A DNA stretch of 64,000 nt from an uncultured Pseudomonadota bacterium. Lineage in GTDB: Bacteria > Oederibacteriota > Muellerivitia > Muellerivitales > Muellerivitaceae. Each line of letters begins with the position of its first letter. The stretch's first letter is position 1. Below, piece by piece: positions 12,485 through 63,597 of this stretch. Position numbers and translations under genes: made by a program. The stretch lies in assembly GCA_963843375.1 (NCBI GenBank), contig CAWJKT010000004.1:128001-192000 (forward strand), given 5' to 3'. The notes under the pieces are model-generated. The model was not told where the DNA came from. It saw only the letters and a list, made by a program, of their open reading frames with translations, and ran no database searches.

Positions 12485-14171
12485 GGGTTCGATCATTTTT
12501 AGGCTGAAATCAAACCGGATGCCCGCGGATTTAAAAATCTCCGGTAAGGGTTGGCTTCCCCCGACGGATAGCCCTTGTTTGTAAAGGCGAACACCCTCGG
12601 CCTTATCTTTCCTAAAATTCTTCCATACTTGAAGAGCCCTAAGTTGGGCGATTCCATATTCGATGTAATAAAAGGGATACTCAAATATATGAAGCTGGCG
12701 GTGCCAAAGATAGGCTTGTACTTCCTCCAAACCATTCCAATCCTCAATACCTCCCAAGCGATGGCGTAAATTCAGCCAATAATCAGACCTTTCTTTTCGG
12801 CTATGGTCGGGATGGGTATAAATCCAATGTTGGAAGGCATCCACGGTGGCGATCCAAGGGAAGTAGGGTAATCACATCTTCCAGGTGGCGGATGGTGGAG
12901 CGGGCCGCTTCCGGGGATTGCATAAAACTCATCCAGGTAAGGATCCGCCATCAATTCCATGCTCATGGAAGCCACCTCACAGAATTCCATGGGTGCGTGG
13001 CGGTAAGGGGAAAAGGAAATATTCCTCCAGGCGAAACTATGCATGGCATGGCCACTCTCATGAAGCAAGGTGCGAACATCGTGATCGAGTCCCACCGAAT
13101 TGGCAAAAATAAAGGGGATTCGGGCCTCTTCCAAATCCACTTGGTAACCTCCAGGGGCTTTTCCTTTGCGGGATTCCAAGTCCAGCAGGCTTAATTCCTT
13201 CATCCGTTTAAAGTTATCCGCCAAAGTCGGGATCAATTTTCGATAATATTTGTTCACATCCATCGACTAGTTTTTCAGTATTTTCAAAAGGTTTTAAGGG
13301 GGCTAATCCAGCCGGATCGACCAAGAGGTCCCATGGCCGTAAAGCGGGTAATCCCATTTTCTTTTTCCGCTTTTCCTGGATTTTGACGACCAAGGGCCGG
13401 ATGGCTTTTTCGGCGCTTTCATGAAAAGCTTCACAATCTTTTGGACCGTAATCAAAACGTTCCTTGCGTCGAAAAATATAATTCCGGTAATCGGGAAACC
13501 CGCGTTTTTGGCGGCTTGGGCACGAATTTTAAGCATCTTGTCGAAGAGTTCTTCAAGGGAATTTTTTTCTTTCAAACGGCGTTCCGCTATCAACTTCCAG
13601 GCTTCTTCCCGTTGAGCCCGGTTGGTGGATTCCAAATAGCGCCCCATTTGTTGAAGGGTTTGCTCTTTGCCCTCGTATTTCACGGTTAAAGCGCCATTTC
13701 GTTTCTGGTATTCCTGGGATAGTTTTTCTAATTCCGTTTCCAACGGGATGTTTTCCTCCCGGTACAAATTTAAATCATTTCCAATAGAGCGGTTGTAAAG
13801 AAAGTAATCTTTCTCCGGAAGTGAAGGGACGGTAAGGGCATTCCCAGTATTTTTTGGAAAGGGCGAAGAATTTGGGTTTGCTTGGCTCCGAGATTTTTTC
13901 AAGGAAATCCAGATAGCTTTTCTCGATATCCGGATCGTCGGTTTTACAGGTCATGCGAACATAGCGGACCGAACCCTCCTCATTCAGGCAATCCTGGAAT
14001 TCTCCTAGGTCCTTCAACCATTTTTCCAAATCTGCGGGATGATAAAAGATTCCGGTTTTGAAGATCCTCAAAAATTTTTTCGACCGTTTCCCAATTTCCA
14101 AGATGGGCTTCCGGCGGAACAAACCGGCGGGGATAGGGATGAGGAAGCGTTTTGGCATTCAAGAGGGTCAT
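12434..14171 (-). pseudogene. pepF: M3 family oligoendopeptidase F split by about six frameshifts (probably sequencing indels)
   Basis: Consecutive fragments give RRFVP, LRPWD, GKAPGGY, LLHESGH (HExxH), EVASMSME, HIFEYPFYYIEY; shifts near 14040, 13830, 13497, 13230, 12915 and 12858. Confidence 0.88.
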
Positions 14172-42734: not shown

Positions 42735-42842
42735 AGGAGTTCTTTCTTTAAAAACCGTCGGCGGGAAGGCGCTTTTCCAAAACCCGCAGTCCGTCAGCAT
42801 AGTTAAAGCGTTTTTAAAAATCCTTTTGTTGGCCGAATAATC

Positions 42843-43196
42843 CTAACAGGCCTTAAACCATCCTTCCAAATTTTTTTCAATGAGGTTCAGACGTTTTACC
42901 CAACGGTCATGTAGTTCGGATGACAAAAGGTTCTTCTTTAGGCAAAGAGAGATCAAAGGAACGCACTCATGGGTGAGGGCGAGGGAATCCTCGAGGAGTT
43001 TTTGGGTGCGGGCCATATTGGAAGAATCTTGGGCGGCAGCAACTTTTTGGGATAATTCGTGGATCTGGCGTTTAAGACGGGATACGGCTTCATGCTTCAA
43101 GGCCCAGGGCAGGTGCCGGTAGGTTTTGTTGATTTCACTGGCTAGGTCACCGCAGAGAGCGGCTATGTCGACGTTCAAGAAGTCTGATGAAGGCAT
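42843..43196 (-). CDS. Divergent four-helix-bundle protein (23S rRNA IVP / Avd-like fold)
   Basis: 117 aa, all-helical; LP...SRLKRQ, ECVPLISLC, IEKNLEGW; lacks the usual SNIAEG motif. Confidence 0.6.
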   Translation of the reverse strand: MPSSDFLNVDIAALCGDLASEINKTYRHLPWALKHEAVSRLKRQIHELSQKVAAAQDSSNMARTQKLLEDSLALTHECVPLISLCLKKNLLSSELHDRWVKRLNLIEKNLEGWFKAC

Positions 43197-43205
43197 GGAC
43201 TTATT

Positions 43206-45287: not shown

Positions 45288-45575
45288 CGCCTGTAAAAAA
45301 TAGAAGGTTTTTTCAATTTTTCAGCCCGAACAATTTTAAATATGATTGTTTTAAATCCGAAGTGGAAAACGCGATCAAAACGGAGGGGAATCTTCATTGT
45401 TTGTTCACCATTAAACTTAATTGTGGGTTAGGCGTCTCGATGGAAATTTATTTTAGACTTTATTGGGTTGGGTAACATATTTATTTTAGGAAACTTAACA
45501 GACTGAGAGCGGGTTTTTCCTAGGCTCTTTCCTTGAGTATTTTCAAACACAACTGCTCCGGGTTTCGTTTCTGTT

Positions 45576-47786: not shown

Positions 47787-49903
47787 TTCCCCGCGGCCAT
47801 AGTTTTTTTCAAAAAAGAATCGGCATCCGTACGGTTGAGGGGAGCTTTCAAAGCTTTTTGAAAGGCGCCTTCGGCTTCTTTTTTATCACCCGCGATCTCA
47901 AAAAAAACACCCAAATGCTCATATAAATGAGCTGCCGGGTATCCCTCTTGAATAGCTTTTTCTAAGGCTTGAACAGCTTGGCGGTAAGATTCGGAGCCTG
48001 GAGTTAAAAAAGAATCTTTGAAATAGGTGTCGGCAGCCCTCTCCCAAAAGCAGGACCTTAAAAAGGGATCGGAAGCAAAGGCCGGTTCGGCGACGAACAA
48101 AGCTTTCAGGCTATCCTGATAGGTGCGGTCCGGAAAGTAACCGATGGTTTCATCCACAAAGGAACGCAAGGCCAGATCGGCTATTTGCCAGTTTTTTAAT
48201 TCCTTGATCCGAGAAGCTTCCAACGGCATTACGAAAAGCATAAGGCCCCCATCGGGCGGGGAAAAATCCTTGGACAGCCAGGAATAGCGACCGTCCGGAA
48301 ATCTTTTGGTTAAGAAGGGCTGATAATTGACGTTGGTCAGTATCGCACCCCACCGGGCCTTTTCGAAGGAAAGGTCAGGGTTTTCAGCTGCGTTGAAATC
48401 ATGGGTGGCTACAGTCAAGGTCTGGTCCGGCAAGCCGGAAACGAAATCATTGAAGAGAAGCCCCGGGCCCTTTTCGGAAGCGATTTGTTTTAGAAGGTTG
48501 TAGGCCCGGAAACGTTCCACGGATTTGGTATAACCGCGCCAATTGTCGGAGGAGTCCCAAAGATGGTGATAAACTCCGAACAAATGGTAGGTGTCCAAAC
48601 CCACTGAAGGGAGAAGTAAAAGAAGGCTTAAAACCATTCCTTTTTTGCCCAGAAAGGACTCTCCCAATTTTTTCCAGCCCAAAACCGTAATGGCCAACAG
48701 GACCGGAATCACCGGAACTATCCGGAAAGTTTCGCGGTCGCTTGTCAAAAGTCCGGGAAGGAGGAAAAGGAAAAAAGCCCAAAGGAGCCAGCGATTCAAG
48801 CCAAGTCGACGATTTTTAAATATATCCAATAGGCCCAGAAAAAAGAGAGAACCCAGAACCGGATTCAAGAACCCCCCCCATAAGGGTTGATAAGTATGAA
48901 AGCGGGGATCCATTCCCCAGAAGAGGGAGGAAATATAGGAAAAAGAAATGGCGGCTTGTTGGATCCATGAAGAGCTTTGGTGAAAAGCCGCCAGATGACG
49001 CAGGTAAGGGCCGTATCCCCGGGTGGCGCAGAAGTAAAAAAAAGGAAGGAACAGCGAAAGAAAGGGAAAAATCCAAAAGAGAAAGGCTCGTTGAGAAGTT
49101 TTTTCCCCGGTTATCAGATCATATAAAAGGGTTGCCACCAAGACAGCGGCAATGACCGCCCAATGGATGTGAATCAAAAAGCCAAACCCTAGCAGGAGTC
49201 CCAGTGCCAAAGCCCATTTTTTCTTAGAGGAGGGGTACGAAGGATGAAGAACTCCTCCCAAAAGGTAAAAGGCCAGGCATTCCGCCAAAAGAACAAGTCC
49301 AGTCATGAAGGAAAATCTTCCCAAGAGCCAAGGCCAAAAACTAAACGCCGCCAGGAGTACACAAAGAAAGGAAAATGATTTTGAAAAAAAACGGGTGGCG
49401 GCTAAATAAGCGATGGGAACTACCGAAATTGAAATTAGGGCTGGAAGCAACCAAAGGCTTGTCAGGGAAGTTCCGAAAATCCTAAAGGTCAGACTGAGCA
49501 GCCAAATATAAAAAGGGGGGACACGACTATCCCCATAAAACAACCGCCAATCCCATTTTTCATTCAACTGGAGGGCGTAATACCCATAGACTCCCTCGTC
49601 GTAGTGGGGCCAAACCGAAAGAGTGGTCAGTTGGGCAAGTCGCACGGATACGGCAAGGATCGCGACCAAAATCCATATCCAAGCTGGAATGAATGGTAAA
49701 AATTCCAATTGTTTCATCGTTTTTTCATTTTGGATTTCACCCCTGCTCGTTCCCAGCCAAAGCACAGCCGGCACCAGGAGCCCCCCCAAGCCGATCCAAA
49801 TCTTGGTTTCCAATGAAAAAGGCAGATAAGACAATCCCAGGTTGGCCGCTAGGAAAACAAAAAAGAGAAGCCATGGGGTATGAAGCCATTCATTTTTTTT
49901 CAT
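47783..49903 (-). CDS. GT-C membrane glycosyltransferase with C-terminal TPR-like helix pair, paralog 3
   Basis: WPHYDEG, YQPLWGGFLNP, PDQTL, GYPAAHLYEHLG; ATGA overlap with the upstream gene. Confidence 0.8.
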   Translation of the reverse strand: MKKNEWLHTPWLLFFVFLAANLGLSYLPFSLETKIWIGLGGLLVPAVLWLGTSRGEIQNEKTMKQLEFLPFIPAWIWILVAILAVSVRLAQLTTLSVWPHYDEGVYGYYALQLNEKWDWRLFYGDSRVPPFYIWLLSLTFRIFGTSLTSLWLLPALISISVVPIAYLAATRFFSKSFSFLCVLLAAFSFWPWLLGRFSFMTGLVLLAECLAFYLLGGVLHPSYPSSKKKWALALGLLLGFGFLIHIHWAVIAAVLVATLLYDLITGEKTSQRAFLFWIFPFLSLFLPFFYFCATRGYGPYLRHLAAFHQSSSWIQQAAISFSYISSLFWGMDPRFHTYQPLWGGFLNPVLGSLFFLGLLDIFKNRRLGLNRWLLWAFFLFLLPGLLTSDRETFRIVPVIPVLLAITVLGWKKLGESFLGKKGMVLSLLLLLPSVGLDTYHLFGVYHHLWDSSDNWRGYTKSVERFRAYNLLKQIASEKGPGLLFNDFVSGLPDQTLTVATHDFNAAENPDLSFEKARWGAILTNVNYQPFLTKRFPDGRYSWLSKDFSPPDGGLMLFVMPLEASRIKELKNWQIADLALRSFVDETIGYFPDRTYQDSLKALFVAEPAFASDPFLRSCFWERAADTYFKDSFLTPGSESYRQAVQALEKAIQEGYPAAHLYEHLGVFFEIAGDKKEAEGAFQKALKAPLNRTDADSFLKKTMAAGN

Positions 49904-52014
49904 TTGTATATCGGTTCTTTCCCCTGGGAAGGGATTTTCAATTGCTCCAAAAGAGAAGCCGCATTGGTGAAATTCATAGGAGATTGGGTCGCTTTTTCCA
50001 AGTATTGGCGGGCCTTTGAAGGGCTTTGTTGGAGAATTTCTAATATGCCTAAGCGGTAGAAAATTTGAGCAGCTGGATAACCCTCACGCAAAGCCTCCTG
50101 AAGGCAGCCGATGCTTTCAGGAAAACGGCGGGCTTTGAAATCGTAGTCCGCCATCTTTTCCCAGAAACATGATCGTAAGAAAGGATCATCTTGGAAGGCA
50201 GGATAGGCATCCTCCAGAATCCGGAATGTTTCTGCGGAAGGTTGGCCCCAAAAGTAATTGATATTTTGAAAACTGGAATCCCGGAAGTTATCCAATGCCA
50301 AGTCAGCTTTGTACCAGCGCCGGAAAATGGGCCGGTTCGAATCGGTGATTGGAATTATCCAAAGCATCCGGCCGCCATCCGGAAGGTTAAAGTCCTTGGA
50401 GAGCCAATAGGCCTTTCCAACGCCGAACTGCCGTTCTAAAAAAGGACGGTAATGGACATTTACCAGTAGGGCTGCCCATTGGGCCTCCTCAAAGGATCTT
50501 TCTCGGTCTACCAGTGCATCGAAGGAGAAAGTTGCCAAGGAAAGAGTTTGATCGGAATTGTTGGGGTTGAAATCTTGGAAGACCAGTCCAGGCCCTTTCT
50601 TAAGAGATTCTTCCTTGAGGATGGGGAATGCCCGGTAACTATTGATGGATTTCACCGATTTCAACCAATAGTCGGGAGAATCCCAGAGATTCCGACTAGG
50701 TCCGGTCAAGTGATAAAAATCAACACCAATGGAAGTTAGAAAAAGGAATGTCAGCAAGATAGCAGCCCGGGAAGGGGCTAAACCATCTAAAAACCGGGAG
50801 ATACCCAAAGCGATCAAAGGAATAACGGCAGCTAGGACGGGAAGAACGCGGTAGTTTTCCGAATCCCGGCTGAGCATTCCAGGCAGCAAAAAGACTAATA
50901 GAGAAACCAACAGCCATTGATAGACTCCATCGGAGATGTTTTTAAAGGCTTCCAGGATGCCTAAAAAACAGAGGGATCCCAAGATGGGATTTAAGAACCC
51001 TCCCCAGGAAGGTTGATAGGTGTAAAACTCGAGCGGGATTCCCCAGAAGATGGATTGGAAATAGGAAAAATTTACTCTTAAATGATCCGGATTTGAGAGG
51101 TAACCAACGTAACCCGGAATGCCCGAACTAAAGGCCAATAAAGCGAAAGGAAGAGCCGCTAATGCGAAACCGATTGCAAAAAAACTAGCCATTGCCGGAG
51201 ATTTACGGGTTTGGTAAAAAACCGTCGCCCCTATCATGGCGATCACCGCCAACCAATGCAGATAAATGGCATAAAGGATAAGGCCTAATCCAAATCCCAA
51301 TATGAAAGCGAGAATTCGACGGTTCTTTTCTAAATTTGTTCTAAGTAATTTTCCCAACCCTAAAAAAACAATAGCTTCCGCCAAGGGAATCAAGGTTGTG
51401 CATTCGGAAAAGCGGGCCATGTACCAAACCCAAAAACAAAAAGCCATCAACAAAACGCAAAGGAAGGAAAAAGACCGAGAAAAATAATATCGGGCCGCCA
51501 GATAACAAATCGGAAGGGTTAGCGTGGAAAAAAAAGACGGCCAAAACCATAAGTTGGCCATAGAGGGCCCCCAAAGTCGGAACTGCAGAGCCAGCCACCA
51601 GGGATAAAAAGGAGGAACCTGGCTACTACTATAAAGTAAACGGGTCACTCCTTTTCTCATGATGGACAAAGCGAAAAAAAAATAACTACCTTCGTCCCCG
51701 TTAGGCCAGAAGAAAAGGGAGCTGAGCTTATAAAAACGGAAGAAGAGAGCCAGGCCCCCCAATATTCCCCAAATCCAAAGTGGTACTGTAGGAAGAAATT
51801 CTCTGGTGTAAAGGGGGCCGTCGGCACGCAGGGGTGTCCTACTGAAAACAGCAAAAACAAGGGGAAGAACCAGACCCGCCAGGCCCACTCCGAGAGCCCA
51901 TTTCGGCGACAAGTTAAAATAAGAAAGTAGAATATTAGCCAACAGAAAAACCAAAAAATAAATACGTGGACGGTAGGAGTATGGAAATTCTTTACCGAGG
52001 AAAAGTTTTGTCAT
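49900..52014 (-). CDS. GT-C membrane glycosyltransferase with C-terminal TPR-like helix pair, paralog 2
   Basis: WPNGDEG, YQPSWGGFLNP, SDQTL, GYPAAQIFYRLG; start chosen at ATG 52014. Confidence 0.8.
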   Translation of the reverse strand: MTKLFLGKEFPYSYRPRIYFLVFLLANILLSYFNLSPKWALGVGLAGLVLPLVFAVFSRTPLRADGPLYTREFLPTVPLWIWGILGGLALFFRFYKLSSLFFWPNGDEGSYFFFALSIMRKGVTRLLYSSSQVPPFYPWWLALQFRLWGPSMANLWFWPSFFSTLTLPICYLAARYYFSRSFSFLCVLLMAFCFWVWYMARFSECTTLIPLAEAIVFLGLGKLLRTNLEKNRRILAFILGFGLGLILYAIYLHWLAVIAMIGATVFYQTRKSPAMASFFAIGFALAALPFALLAFSSGIPGYVGYLSNPDHLRVNFSYFQSIFWGIPLEFYTYQPSWGGFLNPILGSLCFLGILEAFKNISDGVYQWLLVSLLVFLLPGMLSRDSENYRVLPVLAAVIPLIALGISRFLDGLAPSRAAILLTFLFLTSIGVDFYHLTGPSRNLWDSPDYWLKSVKSINSYRAFPILKEESLKKGPGLVFQDFNPNNSDQTLSLATFSFDALVDRERSFEEAQWAALLVNVHYRPFLERQFGVGKAYWLSKDFNLPDGGRMLWIIPITDSNRPIFRRWYKADLALDNFRDSSFQNINYFWGQPSAETFRILEDAYPAFQDDPFLRSCFWEKMADYDFKARRFPESIGCLQEALREGYPAAQIFYRLGILEILQQSPSKARQYLEKATQSPMNFTNAASLLEQLKIPSQGKEPIYK

Positions 52015-52024
52015 CGAATCTATT

Positions 52025-53362
52025 TTACTGGCCCTTAGACAGATATTCTGCGATTTTTTCTGCCGCCCGGTGTCCCGAATGGCATGCGCCCTCAATGGTG
52101 GCCGGAAGCCCGGTGGCAGTCCAATCCCCGGCGAGAAAAACATGAGGGAAAGGTGTTTCGGTGGGAAGGCGAAGAGAATTCGTTTCCTCTGTCCAGATAA
52201 AGGTGGCGGCCATCTCGCGGGTCACTTTAGCATGCAGAATCTCCGCGCTTCGGGATGAGGGGCAACGGTCTTGAAGTTCTTCTAAGGCCAGGGCGACCAG
52301 TTCATTTGCAGATTTACCGGCCAAGTCCTCTGCGGCGCTAGTCGTAAAGCTCAAGTATTGGCCTTTCCCTTGCCAACCCCAATTGGCATTGCGATTGAAA
52401 ACCCAGTCGAACCTTGCGCCGGAAAGGCCCACCATATGTTGGTCGGTTACTTTTTTAGAAAGGATCAAATGCACCGAAAGGATGGGGGACTTGCCCAACT
52501 TCGGCAATGCTTCCACTGCCCGCCAAGTATTTGGAGGCCAGAGGGCATAAAGCGAAGAAGGAGGAACGGCCCAAATCAAAGCGTCGCCGTTGAAAGTCTT
52601 GCCAGAGCGGGATGTTAATTGGAAATCCCTTCCTTCCACTCGGAAAGCTTGAATACCCTCGTGGAAATAAACGCTCCCGCCCTTTTGTTTTAGGTAAGCG
52701 ATAGTTTGGGGAAAGCCTAATTCGCTTAAGGGACGGGAAGGGACGGCCAGAGCACTGTTCCTCCGGCTCTGGAAAAAAATCCGGCGAAGGACTTCGCCTA
52801 AGCCTTTTATAGGGGCTATTTCCACCGGAACGTTCATTACCGAGTTACAGAGGGGAATCCAAAATCTTTCCCGGGCGAGAGATCCTTGATAGGTAGCATC
52901 CAGAAATTGGGCCACGGTTTTAACCCCCGCCTGTAAGGCAAAGGGCTTTTTAGAAAAAACCCTGAGGGCCAGGGCAAGATTAAGTTTTTCTCCAAAGGGA
53001 AAAGCATTGGACCAGAAAAGCCCCCAGACTAGATGGAAAGGCGCCGGAAGGGGAGCGCAGTTCAGCGAAACCGTGGAATGATTCTTTACCAGCCAGGAGA
53101 GCCGTAAGGGATCCAGCCAGTGGAAGGGTTCCTGTACGCCTATTCGATGAAAAAGCTTGAAGGTTTCATGATAACAACCCATGAGAAGATGGGGACCATT
53201 GTCCACCGGGGCTGGGAAATTTTCCAAAGTGGTGGTGGAGTAAACACGACCTCCGAGGGAACCGCGGGATTCCAGCAATTCCACCTGATAGCCGCGTTCC
53301 GCTAAAGACGTGGCGGCGGATATTCCCGCAAAGCCCCCACCCACAACGATTACTTTAGTCAT
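52025..53362 (-). CDS. hpnE: Hydroxysqualene dehydroxylase (squalene-associated FAD enzyme)
   Basis: VVGGGFAG, LGGR, VDNGPHLLMGCY, LAGDWTATGLPATIEGA; linked to hpnCD. Confidence 0.9.
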   Translation of the reverse strand: MTKVIVVGGGFAGISAATSLAERGYQVELLESRGSLGGRVYSTTTLENFPAPVDNGPHLLMGCYHETFKLFHRIGVQEPFHWLDPLRLSWLVKNHSTVSLNCAPLPAPFHLVWGLFWSNAFPFGEKLNLALALRVFSKKPFALQAGVKTVAQFLDATYQGSLARERFWIPLCNSVMNVPVEIAPIKGLGEVLRRIFFQSRRNSALAVPSRPLSELGFPQTIAYLKQKGGSVYFHEGIQAFRVEGRDFQLTSRSGKTFNGDALIWAVPPSSLYALWPPNTWRAVEALPKLGKSPILSVHLILSKKVTDQHMVGLSGARFDWVFNRNANWGWQGKGQYLSFTTSAAEDLAGKSANELVALALEELQDRCPSSRSAEILHAKVTREMAATFIWTEETNSLRLPTETPFPHVFLAGDWTATGLPATIEGACHSGHRAAEKIAEYLSKGQ

Positions 53363-53432
53363 AAAATTCCTCAAAATTGATCTCTTGATTATCCTTGGAG
53401 CAAAAAAGGCGGAATTAGGAATGACGCCTATT

Positions 53433-55571
53433 TTAAGGAGTTTTATCCACTCCGACATTTTTAAGTTTTATCTTTTGGTTCAATAAAACCAAGTTTTGGG
53501 CGGCAGGGGTTAAGTCCAGGGGAGAATCAATAGCTTTTTGATAAGCTTTTTTCGACTCCATCAATTTTCCCTTTTTCTCTAGCAGGAAGCCCTTATCGTT
53601 CCAAAGTTCAGGCAGGGAATAACCATGGGCCAAAGCTTGATTAATTGCGGATAGAACAGCGTCGTAATCACCCTCCACTTTTGAGTGAAAAATGACTTTT
53701 TCCCAAAAACAGGATTCGAGAAAAGGGTCTCCTTTTATTTCAGGGTGAATATTAAATAACAAATCCAGAATGGGTTTCGTAGTCTGTTCCGGATAATCAG
53801 TCATGATGGCGGTTGTAACCGCCTCGAGCTTTTGGTTTACGAGGATCCAATGTTTCAAGGTGGGTGCCGTTGACCCATTGAAAGGAATTACGCCCAACAT
53901 TTGGGCTTGGTTAGTCGTTGCGCCAATTTTCTCTAACCAAAACCAACGCCCTTGAGGAAATCGGGAGGCCAGGAATGGCTTGTAATTGGCGTTGATGACA
54001 ACCGCGATCCAGCGTACGTCCGAAAGTGAAAGAGCGGGGTTATGGGCGGCGTCAAAAGGGAAGGTTGCTGTCATCAGGGTGGTATCGGTCGGATTCGGCT
54101 GGAGGTCTAAGAGTAGCGCCCCGGTTCCTTCCTGTTCTCGGATCTGTTCCAGAATGTTGTATGCCTGGTCCAATTCCACCGATTTCATATTTTTCCAATA
54201 AGAATTAGGAACCCCCCAGAGGTGGTGATAAGGGCCCATGAGATGGTAAAGGTCAAAAAAAACAGAAGAGGCTAAAAGAAGACCCATGATCGGCGTCCGG
54301 TACTCCTTTTTCCAATCCGACGGCCAGGTTTTCAAAAGGTTTTGAGCTCCTATGGCGGAAACCAATATTAATAATGGAAAAATTTGAGTATTGCGGAATA
54401 TTTCAAACCCTTTGGATACCAGGCCTGGAAGACAAAAAAGTCCCAGTGACAAAAGGAGCCAAAGGTAAAAGCGGTTCCGATGGATTCGGAAGCACTCAAG
54501 GATTCCCCAAAAGAAAAAAGCATCCATAACAGGATTTAACATTCCTCCCCAAAGCGGACCATAACTTGCGGAAAGGGGGGCAATCCAAAATAAGGAGGCA
54601 AGATTTAACAACGCGTCTTTGAATGGGAGTTTGGAAACGTTTTGAAAGTGGAAAGTTCTTGCGCTTAAAAGATGAGAGCCGTAGTTTTTATTAATAGAAA
54701 TGTAAAGGAAAAAGGCGGAGACGAAAATTAAGGACGCAAAAAAAACCCAGAATTTTTTCTGGCTAGAACGGGAAACGAAAATGTATAAAACAGCTATTAC
54801 GACAGAAAATGCAACGACGGGCCAACTGATGGCAACAAAAAATCCAAGTCCGGTTATAAAGCCTAAAAAGAGACCGGGTTTAATTGTTTTATTGCTTGAA
54901 TTGGTTACGTAAAAACTTAGGGCCACGAGGGTTATAACTGTCCAAAAAAGAACCATGACCGGCCAAGTGCAAAACCGGGCTGAATAAAGAAAGGTGAAAT
55001 TGAATGATGCCATTGTCAATAAAAGAAAGGTGAAGGAGGCGGGAAATGTTTTTTTTGCCCCTACATAAATCACGAAAACCGTCACCACGGAGATTGTTGC
55101 TGGAAAAAGCCAAAGGGAAAAAAGCGAGGGTTCAATCCATTTATAAAATAAAGACAAGGCCCATACGGTTATAGGGGGGACTTGAACATAGCTGAAGAAA
55201 AAATTCCAATGCCATTTCCGGGCCAATTCCAAGGCATAAAAAGAGAAAAGGCCTTCGTCCGGCATGGGCCACGTAGAAAGTCGGGTCAGGTGCCAAAAGC
55301 GGACCAGGATCGCTCCGGCCAGAATTCCACAAGTCCAAAGATAATGGGGTTTAAATGAATCCTCGGGACCCACAGGGAGGTTCTCGTTTCTTTGAGATGA
55401 AAGGATGTAAAAGATCAAAAGAAGTCCGAATCCTAAAAGCCCAACCAAAACCTTTATAGCTGTGGAAAAAGAGGAATAGGAGAGAAAAATATTAATAAGA
55501 AGAAATATAAAAAAACATTTCCAGGAATGAAAATTAATCGGGATTTTTTCAAAAATATTATTTCTAATCAT
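53433..55571 (-). CDS. GT-C membrane glycosyltransferase with C-terminal TPR-like helix pair, paralog 1, between hpnD and hpnE
   Basis: WPMPDEG, YGPLWGGMLNP, TDTTL, DPFLESCFWEK; start overlaps the hpnD stop by 8 bp. Confidence 0.8.
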   Translation of the reverse strand: MIRNNIFEKIPINFHSWKCFFIFLLINIFLSYSSFSTAIKVLVGLLGFGLLLIFYILSSQRNENLPVGPEDSFKPHYLWTCGILAGAILVRFWHLTRLSTWPMPDEGLFSFYALELARKWHWNFFFSYVQVPPITVWALSLFYKWIEPSLFSLWLFPATISVVTVFVIYVGAKKTFPASFTFLLLTMASFNFTFLYSARFCTWPVMVLFWTVITLVALSFYVTNSSNKTIKPGLFLGFITGLGFFVAISWPVVAFSVVIAVLYIFVSRSSQKKFWVFFASLIFVSAFFLYISINKNYGSHLLSARTFHFQNVSKLPFKDALLNLASLFWIAPLSASYGPLWGGMLNPVMDAFFFWGILECFRIHRNRFYLWLLLSLGLFCLPGLVSKGFEIFRNTQIFPLLILVSAIGAQNLLKTWPSDWKKEYRTPIMGLLLASSVFFDLYHLMGPYHHLWGVPNSYWKNMKSVELDQAYNILEQIREQEGTGALLLDLQPNPTDTTLMTATFPFDAAHNPALSLSDVRWIAVVINANYKPFLASRFPQGRWFWLEKIGATTNQAQMLGVIPFNGSTAPTLKHWILVNQKLEAVTTAIMTDYPEQTTKPILDLLFNIHPEIKGDPFLESCFWEKVIFHSKVEGDYDAVLSAINQALAHGYSLPELWNDKGFLLEKKGKLMESKKAYQKAIDSPLDLTPAAQNLVLLNQKIKLKNVGVDKTP

Positions 55572-56445
55572 GAGACTTTATGTTTTTTTTAAAATCAGAC
55601 ACCAATTTCTTATCGGCCCATTTCCAAAAATGACATTGTCCAATAATGCCAATCACCGAAATTAATTTGTCCCATTTGGACAGTGTGATTCGGCCTTGCA
55701 GTATCCGGTAAGGATTGTTTTTAAGCTTTTGAAAGAGTTTCACGTAAACCGCGGCAATGGCTTCGGCGGTCGACAGTTCGGCCCTTTGGGACCGGGACAA
55801 GGATTGACGGGCTTTTTCAAGGAATCCCCAAGCCCGGTCCAGTTGGAACTCGACGAAGAGTTTCCAATGGGAATTATTTTCATCAATATTCTGTGGGTTC
55901 AAATGGAACCGCTTAAAATCTTCACTAGGAAAATAAATCCTTTTGATGGCTTTATCTTCCAGGAAGTCCCGGGCAACGTTCACGATTTGAAGGAAAACTC
56001 CCAAGTTTTCGGCGTATTCCCGGTGAGGCTTATCCTTGAAACCGAATATTTCCATGCTGGAAAGACCCGGTCCGCCCGCTACTTGAAGGGCGTAGTGGTG
56101 GAGTTCAGTGAATTTTTTGAAACGAACTGGCCGAAGATCCCTCTGCACCCCGTTCACAATGCGTTCCAAAGGCTCTCGTGTAAGGCCGAAACGTTGGACA
56201 ATTGTTTGAAATTGACAAAAAAAGTAATCCTTGGGTTTGCCACGGAAGGTATCCCGTAGGTTTTGCTTGAAACGGGCCAGCTTTCGACACTTTTCAACGA
56301 TGGTGCCGGGGCCGTCCGAAATCTCATCAGCCATCCAGCAAAAACGATAGAGAAGTTCCATGGCCTGTCGCTTCTCTTTATTCAAAAGAAGGAGCGGGTA
56401 ATAAAAACTGGTTTTATTTTCAAGGGACCCGATTTTAGGATTCAA
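55564..56445 (-). CDS. hpnD: Presqualene diphosphate synthase
   Basis: TSFYY, LYRFCWMADEISD, LGVFLQIVNVARDFLED...RIYFP. Confidence 0.85.
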   Translation of the reverse strand: MNPKIGSLENKTSFYYPLLLLNKEKRQAMELLYRFCWMADEISDGPGTIVEKCRKLARFKQNLRDTFRGKPKDYFFCQFQTIVQRFGLTREPLERIVNGVQRDLRPVRFKKFTELHHYALQVAGGPGLSSMEIFGFKDKPHREYAENLGVFLQIVNVARDFLEDKAIKRIYFPSEDFKRFHLNPQNIDENNSHWKLFVEFQLDRAWGFLEKARQSLSRSQRAELSTAEAIAAVYVKLFQKLKNNPYRILQGRITLSKWDKLISVIGIIGQCHFWKWADKKLVSDFKKNIKSHD

Positions 56446-56460
56446 AAAATCCTCAATATG

Positions 56461-57337
56461 TTAATTTTGTGGAAGGACCCGACTGAAAAGGGCTTTTAAA
56501 ACCAGGGAAAACTTGTCCATAGCGTTCCACGAGGGCCGATTTTGAACCACATTGTAGTCCAAGGTTTTGATTTTATTGAGGATTCCGTAGCCCCCCAAGT
56601 AAGTGGCTTTCATTTCCCACCTGAATCGTCCCGATCACCGATTCCAAGAGGGGATAACCTTTTTGAAAATAGTTTTCCGTATATTCCACCGCGTTTTTCA
56701 CCAATTGCCGAACCTTAGGTGAATCCTTTAAAGACAAAAGTTCTTTTTCTGCCACACCTGTTTTTTTCATTTCCTTCCGGGGGTAATAAATCCTATTTCG
56801 CCTCAAATCAATGGAAGTGTCCTGCCAGAAGTTGATGAGTTGGAGACCACTACAGATAAAATCGGAATAATCATGAAGTTTTTTATCCCGGATACCTGAA
56901 ATGTAGAGAACCATACGGCCGATGGGATTGGCGCTGTGACGGCAATAATAAAGAAGGTCATTCCAGGAAGCGTAGCGCTTAATGGTTAAATCCATTCGAT
57001 AAGCCTTCAATAAATTTAGGGGAAGAAGAAGGGGAATATGAAAAGTTTTCAAAGTATTGGCAAAGGCCTGAAGAATCTTGGGCGCTTTTTTACCCTTCAC
57101 TGCGGCTTTCAATTCCTTTTCCCACCGGTTCAGTTCGGGCAGGCGTTTTCCCTCGAAAACTTCCTCGTCGGCAAAGTCATCGGCGGTGCGGGAAAAAGCG
57201 TAAAGGGCCGCTACATGGGGCCGAGATTCCTTGGGTAAAAGAAGGGATGCCACCGGAAAATTCTCATAGTGGGAAAAAACCAGCTTTTGACACTGTTGGT
57301 AAGCAGATTCGAGATCTTTGGAAAAGGGCGATTTCAT
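56461..57337 (-). CDS. hpnC: Squalene synthase HpnC (one frameshift near 56632)
   Basis: HYENFPVAS, YAFSRTADDFAD, YCRHSANPIGR, LQLINFWQD; shifted frame supplies GRFRWEMKATYLGG...DYNV...RP to the stop at 56461. Confidence 0.9.
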
Positions 57338-57491
57338 TGAACAAGAATAAGCGCGGAAGGGTGTTGAGATAAACGCTTATTTTCCTTTGGAAAGGCATAA
57401 AAAGTAATGACCAATTCCAACATTAGAAATGATAAACTTTTCCCGAATATTTAATCTATTTCAGGTATGAACCAAGGGATTTCCAGAGCTC

Positions 57492-58565
57492 ATGACCTTG
57501 AACAAGTCCTTTCTACTTGGAGCTTTTTCCGCCTTTTTTGGCCTTTTGTTCTTATCCGAAATATTCCTCCGCCTGACTGTTCCCACTGGCTTTTGGTACC
57601 GCCATTTCGACTTATCCGGTGACATGACCAGCTTGGCCGAGCTTCGGGACCGACTTTCCTTTGCGGCTCCATCGGATCACAGGGTATTCTTATTAGGCGA
57701 CAGCGTATTAGGCGGCAGCGCCCTGATGGAACACCGAATTCCTGAAGCTCGATCCAAAACCCTTTCCAGGTTATTAAAAGTTAGCCTTGGGGCCGCCGAT
57801 ACCAATGCGATTAGCTTAGGTTCGGATGGGCTTCTTTTACCCGACATTGAGGGTTTGACGAAGGAATTCTCCAACGCACTCCCGGATAAGATCCTACTTA
57901 TCTTGAATTTTCGAATGTTTTCCAAGGAATTCGGTGAAGGCGCCAAAGCCCTTTCGCGTAATTTCTTACTTCCGGATCTGCCTGGTGAAATCCAAAAAAG
58001 ATTAAGACCGGATAAATTACCCACAGCCGAAGCTCAATTGAGCGACCGGCTTTACGCGGGAATGTGTGACCATTGGTTTCTTTTCCGTGAAACCCAAATG
58101 CTCAAGACTCTATGGTATTACCCCAGCCAAAAGGATTTTCTTCAACGCCTGCTTGAGCAAGTGGTGGGAAAAAACGAAGACCAGGCGGACATGATTGAGG
58201 CGGCTTTGAAACAAAAGATCGCTTCCTACTATCAACCCTATCTTTGGGATCCCGATGCACTTCCCTTGAATTGCCTGAAAAGGATTCTGGATCAATGGAC
58301 GGAAAAACATATTCCCGTCGAGGTGATATTGACTCCCCAGAATAAAAAATTTTTAGGAAGCTACTTGGATAAACCCAGCTTCGAGAAGAACCGAAAAACA
58401 TTGGCGGTATTTATGAAGAATTACACCCAACAAGGTGTGGCCTATCTCGATTGGGCGGACCGGTTTGATAGCAAGGCTTTTTTGGATCACTGCCATTTGA
58501 CCCCTGAGGGGAACGAACAATACGCCAAAGATTTAATCCAAGTTTTGGGAAAAGGGACACAATGA
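57492..58565 (+). CDS. Membrane-anchored SGNH/GDSL-fold protein (DltD/AlgJ-like acyltransferase)
   Basis: N-terminal TM; VFLLGDS (catalytic Ser); C-terminal FLDHCHLTPEG (DxxH). Confidence 0.8.
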   Translation: MTLNKSFLLGAFSAFFGLLFLSEIFLRLTVPTGFWYRHFDLSGDMTSLAELRDRLSFAAPSDHRVFLLGDSVLGGSALMEHRIPEARSKTLSRLLKVSLGAADTNAISLGSDGLLLPDIEGLTKEFSNALPDKILLILNFRMFSKEFGEGAKALSRNFLLPDLPGEIQKRLRPDKLPTAEAQLSDRLYAGMCDHWFLFRETQMLKTLWYYPSQKDFLQRLLEQVVGKNEDQADMIEAALKQKIASYYQPYLWDPDALPLNCLKRILDQWTEKHIPVEVILTPQNKKFLGSYLDKPSFEKNRKTLAVFMKNYTQQGVAYLDWADRFDSKAFLDHCHLTPEGNEQYAKDLIQVLGKGTQ

Positions 58566-58684
58566 GGAATGTAGAATTCTGGAAGGGTTTCGGAATTGGT
58601 GTAGTTTTGTTCGCCATGTTCCTGGCGATTCTTCTTTTTTCAGGCGACCTATCAGCTTCCAAATTCATCTATGTGGATTTTTAA
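58562..58684 (+). CDS. 40-aa single-TM DltX-like peptide (absent from the ORF track)
   Basis: MRNVEFWKGFGIGVVLFAMFLAILLFSGDLSASKFIYVDF*; ATGA overlap upstream; its TAA abuts the MBOAT GTG; terminal F-I-Y-x-x-F motif. Confidence 0.85.
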   Translation: MRNVEFWKGFGIGVVLFAMFLAILLFSGDLSASKFIYVDF

Positions 58685-59890
58685 GTGATCTTTAATACCA
58701 GTTGGTTCCTGCTCTTCTTCCTTGTTTTTTATTTTTTCCTATGGTTCATGCCCAACGCCAAAGTGCGGTTTCTATATCTCCTGATCTGCAGCGCTATTTT
58801 CCACTATCATTTTGCCGGCCCGGCAGGAGTAACGCCCATCATCATCATGGCGGTTATCACTTTTTTCTTCGCCCTTTGGATTTCCAAATGTTCCCCGGGA
58901 AGCCTCCGGAAGAAATGGGTTTTTACCGCTGCTCTTTTGGTACCTATCTTTGGGCTTCTCTTTTATAAATATCGCGCGCTATTGCTGGGGTCCATAGGTC
59001 CTCTCGTCGGTGGTTCCGTGGGCGGGTGGCTGACTGCCAATGCTATTCAACCGGCGATGCCGCTGGCGATCTCCTTCTTCACTTTCGAATTCGTTCATTA
59101 CCTTACGGATATCTATCATGACCACGGAGATCCAATAAGGAATCCATTCAAGTTCGGTATCTTCTGCATATTCTTCCCCTCCATCGTTTCAGGCCCTATT
59201 AAGAGGTTTCAACCTTTTTTGGCCCAAATGGAAAACGGTTTGGAGAGGCCGCCAGTGGAAAAGGCCGCCTTGGGTTTGGCTCAATTGCTCCTGGGTTTTT
59301 TTAAGAAACTTGTCATCGCCGACAACGCCACTATGCTCATCCATCTCTTGGAAAAGCGAACCGACCTTCATTTTGGTTCTGTCTGTCTCTTACTGACACT
59401 TCTTTCAATTCGAATCCTTTTTGACTTCAGCGGCTATAGCGATATTGCTATAGGCTTGGGCAAGATGATCGGGTTGGATTTACCTGCGAATTTTAATTTT
59501 CCTTATATTTCCCGCAATATCACCGAGTTTTGGCGCCGGTGGCACATGTCCCTCAGCAGTTGGATCAGGGATTACATTTATATTCCTATGGGCGGAAATC
59601 GATTCGGTGTTGTAAGAAAATTCTTCAACCTGATGGTCACTATGTTCGTGTGCGGGCTCTGGCATGGCGCTAGCTGGCACTTCGGCCTTTGGGGCATGTA
59701 CCATGGGGTAGGGTTGGCGGTTCACAACGTCTGGAGCAAATCGAACATGGGCCAGAAATGGGAAGCCCTCCCATTTAGCCGATGGGTGGATATTGGAATT
59801 ACGAATGTTTTCGTGGCTTATGGCTGGCTTTTGTTTTTTTATCCGATGGAACAAGTTACAAAGTTCACGGAACGTTTATTTCAATTTTGA
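58685..59890 (+). CDS. MBOAT O-acyltransferase (DltB/AlgI family)
   Basis: PLAISFFTF, FFPSIVSGPI, FDFSGYSDIA, FWRRWHMSLSSW.RDY.YIP.GG, GLWHGA (catalytic His); 401 aa. Confidence 0.95.
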   Translation: MIFNTSWFLLFFLVFYFFLWFMPNAKVRFLYLLICSAIFHYHFAGPAGVTPIIIMAVITFFFALWISKCSPGSLRKKWVFTAALLVPIFGLLFYKYRALLLGSIGPLVGGSVGGWLTANAIQPAMPLAISFFTFEFVHYLTDIYHDHGDPIRNPFKFGIFCIFFPSIVSGPIKRFQPFLAQMENGLERPPVEKAALGLAQLLLGFFKKLVIADNATMLIHLLEKRTDLHFGSVCLLLTLLSIRILFDFSGYSDIAIGLGKMIGLDLPANFNFPYISRNITEFWRRWHMSLSSWIRDYIYIPMGGNRFGVVRKFFNLMVTMFVCGLWHGASWHFGLWGMYHGVGLAVHNVWSKSNMGQKWEALPFSRWVDIGITNVFVAYGWLLFFYPMEQVTKFTERLFQF

Positions 59891-59904
59891 TCTCAGGAGA
59901 AGTG

Positions 59905-61980
59905 ATGCCCAAGGAATACCAGCGAAAGACACACGAGTGGATAGCATTTTGGATGTCTTTCTTCTTCTTTCCATCGTTGGTTTTTGCCCTTTCTCCCATG
60001 GATTATTACAACAGCCTTGTTTGCGGAGCGGAAGAGGCTGGGTTCCAAGATGGGGCTTTTTATCAGGCCCGATTCAACGGTCCATGTGGCTTGGCTTTTG
60101 ACGATAAGGGAGAGAGGCTTTTCGTAGCCGACAGGGATAATCACCGAATTCGAGTCATTTTCCTTAATGAGGACAACCGGGTGGAAACATTGACCGGAAC
60201 GGGCAAAGCGGGGTCAGTAGATGGAAGTTTAGACCAGGCTTCATTCGACTTGCCTTGGGCGCTGGCTTGGGTTCCAGGCGGACACTTGGTGGTTTACGAT
60301 GCTGGCAATAAACGGTTTCGGGAAATCGACTTAAGCGCTGGGAGCGTTTCCACGCTGGCTTGTGATTCTTCGGACTGTAAAACCACCGCAGCGCCTGCGT
60401 TCCAAGTATGGAACATTGTCTATTGTTCAAAGGACAACAGCCTTTATTTCACCGAACCCTTGGGTCAGGAGCTTCAAAAGATGGATTTGGGATCCCAATT
60501 GGTCTCCACCGTTTTTTCAAAAAATTCACAGATACCCCAACCCAAAGCCCTTTGTCTTGACGGGGACCATCTTTACGTCGCGGACAAGGATCTTCCGACG
60601 GTGTATGAAGTGGATATGCCGACGGCCACCGGAACTACCCTAGCCCCTGTTTCGCTGACGGAAGTGGGAAAGGGGCAGCTCATTCAAGAAATGACTTTTT
60701 CGGACGGACAATTGTACGCCTTACAATTTGGAAACCCGCCCTTGGTGAGATTAAACCCCTATGAACCTGTAAGTCTCGCCACATCCTGGGGCTTCACCCT
60801 GGACGAATCGGATTCGCAATACAAAGCTCTTTTGAGTTTCACTTTACTTGATCCGGTAGGATTTGCTTCTTGTCCCGCCTTTCCCCGGAAGCTGTTTATT
60901 TCCCATCCCAGAATTACGGATCATTCCCTTTTAAGCGTTAAGGATTACGAGTTCGATAAATATTGGGCCGGCCGTGACTTGGTTTCGGATGAGAGAGAGG
61001 GGGTTTTAACGGATTTTCATTATCCCGAGGCAAAGCCTCCCAACACTTTTCGTATTTTAGTGGTGGGGGATTCCCAAATTTTGTCCGGTGACCTCATGGG
61101 ACCGAGCGACGGGGCCGTGACGGGAGAAGGGGCCTCGCTTTTCCAATTCGGGGCCTCTCCACGGGATTTAACTTGGCCCAAGCAGTTGGAGTTTATGTTG
61201 AATGCCCAAGCCGCCTTGGCCCATGGGAACATCCATTACGAGGTACTCGTGTTGGGCCACCCTGGGAAGTCGGCCCAACTCTTCGGTTATTATGAAGCGC
61301 CACCGCTTGTGGAGAAATATGACATCGACTCTGTCTTGTTTTTTGCCACGCCCTACAACATTGATAATCAGGATTCCTATTCGAGTTATTTCTTGAAAAA
61401 AATGACCCAAGAAGGCGTGCCGGCCCAGGAGGTCGACCCGGAGTATCTTTTGACGTCCGCTTCCAAGCGGGTGCCCCCCGGCATTCCAGCCGATCTTTAT
61501 CAAAGAGCCTACGAAGCGGGATTCATCAAGAAGGTTTCGCCAACCCAGGATTATTTCGCTCCTTTTGCGGACTTGTTGGAATCCGACGACAGCCAAATCC
61601 ATGAGGACTTGGTTCAAATGGTGGGGCTGCCCCTCAAGCTCCTGTCGAATAAAGTCCAACTGCATAAAACCAGAGGAGGAAAAGAAACCTCTTTTCTTCT
61701 TTGTTATGCCCCCAGCGGCGATAATAGTATTAAAACTAAATCGGATTATCATGTTTTTTGGCGGGATGTGATTTCCCAAACCCAATTGCCTTTTCTGGAT
61801 CTGGACGATTCCTTCAGGGTTTTCAAATCCGCTTTTTACCCCACGAATGATGCCTGCTGCCATAGCCACTTTACCGCTTATGGTGATATGCTGGTTGCCT
61901 ATCTGTTGAATTATTATCTGGTCGCTGGAAAATTTATTCCTTTTGGGACAAACCAGGGCCTCGAAGGCTCGTCCAAGTAG
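59905..61980 (+). CDS. Secreted NHL-repeat beta-propeller fused to an SGNH-like domain
   Basis: ARFNGPCGLAFD, LFVADRDNHRIR NHL repeats; FRILVVGDS; C-terminal CCHSHFTAYG. Confidence 0.75.
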   Translation: MPKEYQRKTHEWIAFWMSFFFFPSLVFALSPMDYYNSLVCGAEEAGFQDGAFYQARFNGPCGLAFDDKGERLFVADRDNHRIRVIFLNEDNRVETLTGTGKAGSVDGSLDQASFDLPWALAWVPGGHLVVYDAGNKRFREIDLSAGSVSTLACDSSDCKTTAAPAFQVWNIVYCSKDNSLYFTEPLGQELQKMDLGSQLVSTVFSKNSQIPQPKALCLDGDHLYVADKDLPTVYEVDMPTATGTTLAPVSLTEVGKGQLIQEMTFSDGQLYALQFGNPPLVRLNPYEPVSLATSWGFTLDESDSQYKALLSFTLLDPVGFASCPAFPRKLFISHPRITDHSLLSVKDYEFDKYWAGRDLVSDEREGVLTDFHYPEAKPPNTFRILVVGDSQILSGDLMGPSDGAVTGEGASLFQFGASPRDLTWPKQLEFMLNAQAALAHGNIHYEVLVLGHPGKSAQLFGYYEAPPLVEKYDIDSVLFFATPYNIDNQDSYSSYFLKKMTQEGVPAQEVDPEYLLTSASKRVPPGIPADLYQRAYEAGFIKKVSPTQDYFAPFADLLESDDSQIHEDLVQMVGLPLKLLSNKVQLHKTRGGKETSFLLCYAPSGDNSIKTKSDYHVFWRDVISQTQLPFLDLDDSFRVFKSAFYPTNDACCHSHFTAYGDMLVAYLLNYYLVAGKFIPFGTNQGLEGSSK

Positions 61981-62006: not shown

Positions 62007-62510
62007 ATGAAAGAATTTCTGTTCATTTTAATTTTTTTCGGGCTTGTGACTTTGATAGGAGCTCAAGAAACTCCGGTGCCCGCGATAACAACGCCCGCCA
62101 CCGTTCCAGTGACAGTCATCGAGAAGTGGAACACCTCCAATGTACCTTGGGACGATTGGTTCAAGAGCAACGCTATGGTCACGGATAAGACCGATTACGT
62201 CCATTTCTTTTGGAACGCGCAAGACTTCAAGGCCAATTTCGAGGTGAAGAATAAGAAAGTCCGCTTAGCTGAGGCTGCGCTGGAATTGGTGAAGCGTCTT
62301 TATCCCTCGGACGCCAGTGCGGACCAGGTAAAGGTGGATATTGTTTATGTATTAGAGAGGGATTCCTATGGCCAACCCAAGTGGGACAGCCTACAACAGG
62401 TGGCTCATTTTGAGTTCTTGAAATCAAAAGCGCTCAAACAGGCCAAGAAGAAGCAAGTTCTAACCGATACTGTTATGAAAAAGATTTTCGATAAATTTGA
62501 GTTTTATTGA
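62007..62510 (+). CDS. Hypothetical secreted protein
   Basis: AAGGAG RBS, signal peptide, short Thr/Pro stretch. Confidence 0.7.
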   Translation: MKEFLFILIFFGLVTLIGAQETPVPAITTPATVPVTVIEKWNTSNVPWDDWFKSNAMVTDKTDYVHFFWNAQDFKANFEVKNKKVRLAEAALELVKRLYPSDASADQVKVDIVYVLERDSYGQPKWDSLQQVAHFEFLKSKALKQAKKKQVLTDTVMKKIFDKFEFY

Positions 62511-62742: not shown

Positions 62743-63597
62743 ATGAAAAGAATTTTGAGTTTCGCTGTAACTTTTTTCATCTTGGCGGGAGTTTCCGCAA
62801 GTAATGCTCAAAATTTATCCACAACTCCATCTGCCAGTGGCCCCACTCCGTCCACGACACCAGGTTCAACCGTTAAGCACCACAAAAAGAAGAAGGCCTC
62901 CGTCCAAGCCACGGTTCAACCCACTGCCCAAATGACTGTATCGCCAACATCAAGTCCTTCGGTTACTCAAACCCTCCCTGTCAAACCGACCTCAACTCCG
63001 ACTGCGATGCCGACCCCAACAAACGTTCCTGAATCCTCTTCGATGGGAGCTATCGCCAATTCGAAAATTTATGACCGCATGGACCTGCCTGGGGACTTAC
63101 GTGGAGCTTTGTTCCGTGCCGTCAAGACATTGACCAGGGTTTCCGTGAAACATGGCCACACGGTTTTCTTGGACCTGGAAAAGGTTTCCGCGAACAAGAT
63201 CGATAAGGAAAGAAGGAACGCCTACGCGCGATTCGAGATTAATGAACTGGAATTAGGGGGAGCTCGCAACCCTTGGATTCTTCTGGCCGGAACTGTTTTC
63301 GAGCAAAGTGGGGATGATTGCAAAGTGGACGGTCCCATCGAAGTGGCAATTGATTTTAAAGATATCAAGATCAATTACGGCGGGAGCAAAATGGGGGAGA
63401 TCCAAAAAGGAAACGATATCGCCGCCCAAGTGTATAAGAAACTCATCAGCCATGACGGCTACCAATTGATATTGCAAGCCAATGACCAGGACAAGGATTC
63501 CAAGTATATGGACGATACAGCGGCCTATACCGTCAAGGCCAGGGATGGATACGTTATTATGGATTTCCCGAATTCCTCCCATGAAGCATCCCGATAA
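62743..63597 (+). CDS. Hypothetical secreted protein with Ser/Thr/Pro-rich N-terminal region
   Basis: Signal peptide ending ASNA; STTPSASGPTPSTTP...PTSTPTAMPTPT. Confidence 0.75.
   Translation: MKRILSFAVTFFILAGVSASNAQNLSTTPSASGPTPSTTPGSTVKHHKKKKASVQATVQPTAQMTVSPTSSPSVTQTLPVKPTSTPTAMPTPTNVPESSSMGAIANSKIYDRMDLPGDLRGALFRAVKTLTRVSVKHGHTVFLDLEKVSANKIDKERRNAYARFEINELELGGARNPWILLAGTVFEQSGDDCKVDGPIEVAIDFKDIKINYGGSKMGEIQKGNDIAAQVYKKLISHDGYQLILQANDQDKDSKYMDDTAAYTVKARDGYVIMDFPNSSHEASR

Follow-up and report, generated by a model that had tools for sequence, protein, structure and literature searches.

A putative coenzyme A-fed acyl relay with a free tyrosine peptide in an uncultured diderm soil bacterium

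The locus described here lies in a stretch of 64,000 nucleotides (hereafter the window; contig CAWJKT010000004.1, positions 128,001 to 192,000, assembly GCA_963843375.1) from the genome of an uncultured soil bacterium with an outer membrane. A first-pass annotation of this DNA had singled out a trio of genes, encoding an SGNH protein, a small membrane peptide and a membrane-bound acyltransferase of the MBOAT family, as a relay resembling the membrane half of the Dlt pathway. The three open reading frames (ORFs) lie where that annotation had placed them, the first two overlapping and the last two abutting. Its account of the trio as a unit holds for these three genes but overlooked two others, encoding an NHL-SGNH protein of 691 amino acids (aa) and a secreted protein of 167 aa, with which the unit extends to position 62510 (Table 1). 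We propose, with a probability of about 0.6 for the reading as a whole, that the five genes form a transmembrane acyl relay fed by coenzyme A (CoA) thioesters and directed onto a surface glycan.

Table 1. Genes of the predicted acyl-relay unit, in window coordinates
Gene product	Position	Strand	Remarks
Anchored SGNH protein, 357 aa	57492..58565	+	DltD-like fold; predicted catalytic Ser71 (codon 57702-57704), Asp332, His335
Predicted acyl-shuttle microprotein, 40 aa, single helix, ends FIYVDF	58562..58684	+	Tyr37 codon 58670-58672
Short MBOAT, 401 aa	58685..59890	+	His327 codon 59663-59665; PatA/AlgI-type YIYIPMGG loop; without C-terminal Tyr motif
NHL beta-propeller and SGNH-type protein, 691 aa	59905..61980	+	N-terminal hydrophobic segment; GDS at 388, HSH at 653; candidate terminal transferase
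167-aa protein, signal-peptide-like N-terminus	62007..62510	+	Conserved ERDxYGxPxWD motif; candidate adaptor

The SGNH stop and the peptide start share an ATGA (58562-58565), and the GTG start of the MBOAT gene (58685) directly follows the peptide stop. The features initially read from the translations were all recovered, namely the SGNH motifs G69-D70-S71 and D332-H333-C334-H335, the single transmembrane helix of the peptide and its FIYVDF ending, and an MBOAT of 401 aa with GLWHG and the C-terminus RLFQF. Further downstream, an AGGAG stands 6 nucleotides ahead of the ATG of the NHL-SGNH gene; a promoter scan returned fewer sites than in shuffled sequence, and no RNA data set with the sequence was listed. 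A sequence error separating the motif from a neighbouring gene, which the first-pass annotation had named as a possible pitfall, is not apparent: contigs of four sequencing runs from two studies show no indel across 57400-60100, and both gene junctions are spanned by contigs of runs among these other than the best-matching one (X5 record 21 and X3 record 14). Run X1 may be the source sample, and the bridging X3 and X5 records come from the other study.

The small ORF is conserved. Residues F35, Y37, D39 and F40 are invariant in 58 of 58 peptide homologues, and when the last 14 codons of 57 homologues are compared with the window copy, differences number 69, 24 and 428 at first, second and third codon positions, respectively (367 synonymous versus 78 non-synonymous codons), a bias indicating that the frame is under selection as a protein. 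An F-x-Y-x-x-F ending is found in only six of the 36,952 ORFs of 25-80 aa in the genome, among which the window peptide alone has a hydrophobic helix (Kyte-Doolittle 2.49 versus 0.39 or less). Encoded by its own gene and carrying this C-terminal motif after a membrane helix, it has the makings of a DltX-type microprotein acting in trans. The profile comparison with DltX proposed at the outset gave a divided answer, since 19 of the 58 members match Pfam DltX weakly at E<=1 (best 4.9e-5) and the window's own copy does not match it. The peptide-family profile scores DltX no better than the tails of MBOATs with a fused motif, and does not separate the two groups, while a 45%-DltX cluster retrieved at 0.87 from the Atlas is a lead only. 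Co-folding of the MBOAT with the peptide gave a score of 0.02 against a mark of 0.32, with the controls not folded, and is used as evidence neither way.

The MBOAT is recognised by PF03062 (E 2.4e-24, over the cut-off) and scores 186 bits with the DltB model TIGR04091, whose cut-off is 375. His327, predicted from the alignment to be catalytic and aligned with DltB His336, is present together with G303 and G304 in all 42 MBOATs of the family (379-411 aa). None of these 42 ends in Y-x-x-F or bears a Tyr motif on extra C-terminal helices as the fused type does. Past query position 355, the short MBOAT counts 47 residues, DltB 36-42 and nine fused MBOATs 114-159, the latter continuing for about 70-110 residues beyond its end; the short form thus lacks the tail which carries the motif in the fused ones. 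Considered with the conserved separate peptide gene, this bears out the original suggestion that the motif is supplied in trans. Sequence identity of the window MBOAT is 22-25% with three DltB and 25-35% with 37 fused MBOATs, and no other MBOAT was found in the genome, which is 80% complete.

All 77 homologues of the first SGNH protein share S71, G113 and N139, and 76 of the 77 have DHCH; the window protein has an N-terminal hydrophobic helix. An AlphaFold2 model of the protein (pLDDT 93.3) has DltD 7dxm as its top structural match (Z 17.5, 280 residues aligned, root-mean-square deviation 5.4), all top 10 Foldseek rows are DltD, and PatB reaches Z 14.5 over 176 aligned residues, so that the modelled fold is closest to DltD. 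Sequence support for DltD is weak (TIGR04092 12 versus 150 bits, hhalign probability 2.4%), and a PDB sequence search with the SGNH profile gave no match. The trio thus links an MBOAT bearing an invariant, predicted catalytic His to an SGNH protein with a predicted Ser-Asp-His triad (S71, D332, H335), the general make-up of the known MBOAT-SGNH relays.

The host is a diderm with lipopolysaccharide (LPS) genes: LpxC, KdtA and Omp85 score above cut-off in its genome and HldD does so in the window (8631-9584), in agreement with the diderm envelope and LPS heptose gene initially reported. Over 99 genomes of the phylum, the SGNH profile detects 26, in four families, and the peptide profile gives a single strong match in every one of the same 26, with two weak helix-only matches besides; both profiles were partly built from the genomes searched, and kin genomes are not independent. 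LpxC is found in 25 of these 26. The linkage of SGNH, peptide and MBOAT genes, whose recurrence had been put forward as a check, is therefore not a peculiarity of the window: the peptide is present in 43 of 43 wide loci, and the MBOAT starts 0-68 nucleotides past the peptide stop in 62 of 74 locus records, some of them duplicated between tools. Five genomes of families f8 and f9 have the order NHL-SGNH, MBOAT, 167-aa gene, SGNH, peptide, placing the peptide two genes downstream of the MBOAT (L126-L130) instead of upstream as in the window, which argues that the peptide is not a displaced MBOAT tail. Related cassettes also occur on metagenome contigs of 66-71% G+C. Distant SGNH relatives (L104-L108, L111, L113) stand beside MBOATs with a fused FIYFQF or FIYFEF ending, the copy of L108 being cut off.

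The two further genes belong to the unit. The 691-aa protein, whose NHL part has a Pfam match, has five full-length paralogues in the host genome and up to 14 matches in one relative, and lies near the cassette in 26 of the 43 wide loci (E<=1e-20). The gene for the 167-aa protein is detected in 28 of the 99 genomes, covering all 26 cassette-positive ones, and in 36 of the 43 wide loci. This protein has no Pfam or NCBIfam match, and fold searches with its model (pLDDT 86.7) gave at best E 0.08 with Foldseek, Z 5.6 with VIA and 0.84, unnamed, in the Atlas; AlgF was not among these fold matches. Both genes also flank a second cassette with a fused MBOAT in relatives, as expected of shared downstream parts. 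That second cassette, sometimes adjoining the split one with its own 167-aa and NHL-SGNH genes, encodes an FkbH-like protein (630 aa), an acyl carrier protein (ACP), a fused MBOAT (531 aa, ending FLYFRF) and an SGNH protein (338 aa), at L140:12162-16960, L133:11673-16474, L142:4973-9771, L064:56-3822 and L171:8770-11429, the last ending after the MBOAT. Such a cassette would amount to a fused system fed by a carrier, possibly one for glyceryl-group transfer in view of the FkbH-like protein.

In the proposed mechanism, the MBOAT would take an acyl group from a cytoplasmic acyl-CoA, most likely acetyl-CoA, and place it on Tyr37 of the separate 40-residue peptide. From there it would pass to Ser71 of the anchored SGNH protein, and on to an acceptor that is probably a glycan of the cell surface. 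An MBOAT His, a peptide Tyr and an SGNH Ser of these types are the acyl carriers described for PatA and DltX in the available text of PMC12148441, and by analogy with Dlt and PatAB chemistry the His-Tyr-Ser order of transfer appears very probable; the chemistry proposed is that of the known class of MBOAT-Tyr-SGNH relays. The 167-aa protein could act as an adaptor, with the final, acceptor-specific transfer left to the NHL-SGNH paralogues, an assignment made by analogy with AlgI-AlgJ-AlgF-AlgX for which we consider the chances evenly balanced.

Which donor would feed the relay was approached through the carrier genes and the MBOAT itself. DltA (TIGR01734) does not pass the cut-off in any of the 99 genomes (best in the host, G000, 268-272 bits versus 560), while the B. 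subtilis, L. lactis and E. coli controls all register and two of the three pass. Of the 26 positive genomes only four have a match at E<=1e-60, in two cases within a long frame of non-ribosomal peptide synthetase size; stand-alone adenylation proteins matching at this level were found in G000 and G054 only. A DltC query had no match in the window or the genome, and the window contains no DltA, DltC or ACP match; neither the Dlt ligase nor its carrier was thus found in the host, within the limits of its 80% completeness. Four positive genomes of 97-100% completeness (G034, G061, G070, G073) have a single PP-binding match each. The statement that DltA and DltC are missing, made initially for the window, accordingly stands there and, for DltA over the cut-off, in all 99 genomes, but it overlooked an unlinked stand-alone adenylation protein with a second ACP on host contig C28. 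This pair was considered as the donor and set aside as genus-limited. Its island of 40% G+C, compared with 47% for the cassette, is present in both genomes of the genus (G000:C28:18146-22513 and L170:8206-12591) and encodes the adenylation protein, a nitroreductase-family protein, the ACP and a 260-aa protein of no family.

According to the accessible part of PMC11035591, DltB contacts DltC through M302, V305, I306, M309, K312 and R317. When the window MBOAT is aligned with DltB, V305 and I306 lie opposite a gap and M309 opposite Gly303; it therefore does not show the DltC-docking helix of the DltB family, though the basic contacts are kept. A [PSA]-[ILM]-G-G loop is found in 20 of 20 short and 32 of 37 fused MBOATs, including L117 (Neisseria PatA-type by our own assignment, the record being unannotated), and is missing in all six rows with an adjacent carrier gene (three DltB, L121, L064 and L142), for which a single clade, and hence a single origin, was rejected by the approximately unbiased (AU) test (p 0.003). 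PatA uses acetyl-CoA (PMC12148441). The loop common to PatA-type proteins and the missing carrier favour an acyl-CoA donor, which on these sequence features we regard as probable; the early suggestion that the system is perhaps fed by acetyl-CoA draws support from the cytoplasmic loop and keeps its conditional form.

Some of the other loci compared show further combinations of these parts. L151:3566-6250 (G004:C98) holds another split system of the phylum, with a 42-aa peptide ending FIYIDF, a 393-aa MBOAT with a PLGG loop, 33% identical to that of the window, and a 458-aa protein without match to the SGNH profile. A Ralstonia record (L121:3213-6698) has an ACP and a DltA-like adenylation protein after a fused MBOAT ending FLYFQF; such a fused system, carrier-fed and in a diderm, is also outside the published two-way split. 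In a Tistrella record (L123:1882-4604), a DUF5989 microprotein ending FLYAVF stands upstream of an SGNH protein and a fused MBOAT; this family may provide free tyrosine shuttles as well, and a literature search for it found no paper naming DUF5989. Broken frames of the SGNH and MBOAT genes at L133:7508-9956 (G048) probably reflect assembly frameshifts, as does, elsewhere in the window, a peptidase M3 gene in two pieces (12772-13902).

The acceptor was considered from the neighbouring genes. In f8 and f9 the cassette lies amid glycosyltransferase, flippase, O-antigen-ligase-family and sugar-nucleotide genes (L126-L128), and in L082 and L096 beside sugar kinase, nucleotidyltransferase and SIS isomerase genes, a context which makes a surface glycan a rather likely acceptor. 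In the host's own family, the cassette follows squalene-synthase-type genes and GT-C-like membrane proteins; the run at 40704-57337 of the window comprises six membrane proteins of about 700 aa, five with PMT_2 matches (three over cut-off) and several with TPR, and has at one end two squalene/phytoene synthases and a flavin oxidoreductase, presumably hpnC/D/E-like. Squalene-synthase-type genes neighbour the cassette in 12 of 43 loci, which raised the idea of a hopanoid acceptor. It was set aside because such neighbours were seen in own-family genomes and unplaced metagenome contigs but in none of the f8-f10 loci, and because the genome, 80% complete, yielded no squalene-hopene cyclase. Two paralogous Thr/Ser/Pro-rich, secreted-looking proteins of 284 aa and of no family follow the cassette (window 62743-63597 and L167:1281-2138); among the loci compared, such proteins stand beside it in L002 and L053 only.

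Several observations weigh against a CoA-fed relay onto a surface glycan. The own-family neighbours are of squalene-synthase and housekeeping type and those of G034 are housekeeping genes, which means that not every cassette has a glycan context. Of the 43 wide loci, 17 gave no NHL-SGNH match, although some of these loci are short, and the Ser motif of this protein is variable (GDS, GTS, GNS, GES, GAS). On the donor side, DltB K312 and R317, as listed in the part of the source available, are matched by R306 (39 of 42) and R311 (41 of 42), and docking of a housekeeping acyl-ACP may therefore occur; the carrier-linked rows behind the loop marker make up two independent groups; the loop-less MBOATs L122 and L123 have no detected carrier in their 3.5-kb flanks; and an ACP is encoded in the same locus in three of the 43 wide loci, though directly upstream of a fused MBOAT.

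The same Tyr relay could be fed by a carrier encoded elsewhere, either the housekeeping fatty-acid ACP, delivering fatty or hydroxy-acyl groups, or an unlinked ligase/ACP pair. R306 and R311 match salt-bridge residues of DltB, at least one ACP is encoded in 25 of the 26 positive genomes, C28 provides an adenylation protein with its ACP and the SGNH fold is DltD-like; we nevertheless hold this to be unlikely, given that the C28 pair sits in a 40% G+C island, reaches 272 bits of the 560 required for DltA and has stand-alone matches in G000 and G054 only, that the hydrophobic DltC patch is missing from the MBOAT, and that Arg or Lys after the GG loop is also found in most carrier-less fused MBOATs. 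A role of the trio as a PatAB substitute O-acetylating peptidoglycan, with the 167-aa and NHL-SGNH genes incidental or encoding esterases, would suit a genome in which a single MBOAT was found, as well as the PatA-type loop and the attachment of PatA-type rows beside the short clade in the tree. It seems decidedly improbable in view of the SGNH model, nearer to DltD than to PatB in both Z and aligned length, of the 167-aa gene in 26 of 26 positive genomes and of the polysaccharide-cluster context in f8 and f9.

Two other alternatives carry far less weight. The DltB-sized MBOAT, the DltX-like peptide and the DltD-like fold are also what a true Dlt system would present, one that adds D-alanine to LPS or to a polymer resembling teichoic acid and whose dltA and dltC the assembly has failed to capture; we judge it very improbable, as DltA is over the cut-off in none of the 99 genomes while the controls register, DltC has no match in the host genome, and the MBOAT is closer to fused types (up to 35% identity) than to DltB (22-25%). 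That the small ORF is non-functional, whether as a chance frame or as a fragment of a neighbouring gene, is hardly credible: the window peptide does lack a Pfam DltX match, but the strong synonymous bias, the invariant motif, the position of the peptide upstream of the MBOAT here and two genes downstream in L126-L130, and the lack of indels in contigs of two studies all speak against it.

The phylogeny of the MBOATs was inferred from 60 rows cut from 87, with 20 short rows kept by hand and three DltB rows, in an unrooted tree. The 19 core short MBOATs form one clade (100/100), and short MBOATs with DltB versus fused ones are supported at 86/79, unstarred and with a long DltB branch. The AU test rejected a recent split from the fused MBOATs of L105-L107, L111 and L113, the neighbours of the nearest SGNH relatives (p 0.0002). 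The system may share its ancestry with Dlt. More tentatively, and with odds that we place below even, the locus could represent a third architecture of envelope acylation, combining a CoA-fed MBOAT, a free shuttle peptide and a DltD-like SGNH protein, sister to Dlt or its precursor before carrier docking, in which one conduit would feed, via a 167-aa adaptor of a new family, interchangeable NHL-propeller/SGNH transferases acylating several surface glycans.

In the available text of Anderson et al. 2025 (PMC12148441), non-Dlt MBOAT/SGNH pathways are described without carrier protein and DltX-like microprotein, the motif being fused, and DltX is described only in Gram-positive Dlt in the accessible parts of PMC13653941 and PMC13721041. 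A literature search whose coverage left most subscription papers outside found no description of a non-Dlt free shuttle. The present family breaks the published pairing, having a free shuttle without carrier in LPS-bearing bacteria. If the proposed relay is correct, "free shuttle" becomes separated from "carrier-fed", and a three-part complex similar to that of Dlt could be assayed with plain acetyl-CoA, with a bearing on the origin of Dlt. The locus also offers a sequence marker of donor type that can be tested, the P-[LM]-G-G loop versus the extended helix, and adds the 167-aa protein and NHL-SGNH as partner families not characterised before.

Judged from its sequences, the system would work like the membrane half of Dlt while being a member of neither Dlt nor the fused PatA/AlgI type, and the distinction from Dlt drawn in the first-pass annotation is upheld by the missing DltA, DltC and DltB-type docking helix. 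With DltB-DltX-DltD, which serves teichoic-acid D-alanylation in Bacillota (PMC12148441, PMC11035591 and PMC13653941, each in its available part), it shares a short MBOAT with a catalytic His, a separate single-helix microprotein ending F-x-Y-x-x-F and an anchored SGNH protein with DltD as top structural match. It differs from Dlt in that no DltA over the cut-off and no DltC match was found, the MBOAT and SGNH proteins fall far under the Dlt family cut-offs, a P-M-G-G loop replaces the DltC-docking helix, the host bears LPS and two additional partners are present. PatA-PatB, as presented in the accessible text of PMC12148441, resembles it in the diderm host, the lack of a carrier, the cytoplasmic loop and the Tyr motif, acetyl-CoA being the donor shown for PatA and predicted for the window system; the latter differs from PatA-PatB in carrying the motif on a peptide of its own, in an MBOAT shorter by about 70-80 residues and in an SGNH protein that is DltD-like, not PatB-like. 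The alginate system AlgI-AlgJ-AlgF-AlgX (bioRxiv 10.1101/2023.07.25.550544, available part) likewise combines an MBOAT, an anchored SGNH protein, a small secreted non-enzyme and a second SGNH protein with an extra domain, its AlgF consisting of two beta-sandwiches, unlike the mixed alpha/beta fold predicted for the 167-aa protein. AlgI-type MBOATs carry the motif fused, and no alginate synthase neighbours were seen beside the cassette. The extra domain of AlgX is a carbohydrate-binding module, that of the second SGNH protein here an NHL propeller, with up to 14 matches per genome. The likeness of the two partners to AlgF and AlgX is one of analogy, not of homology.

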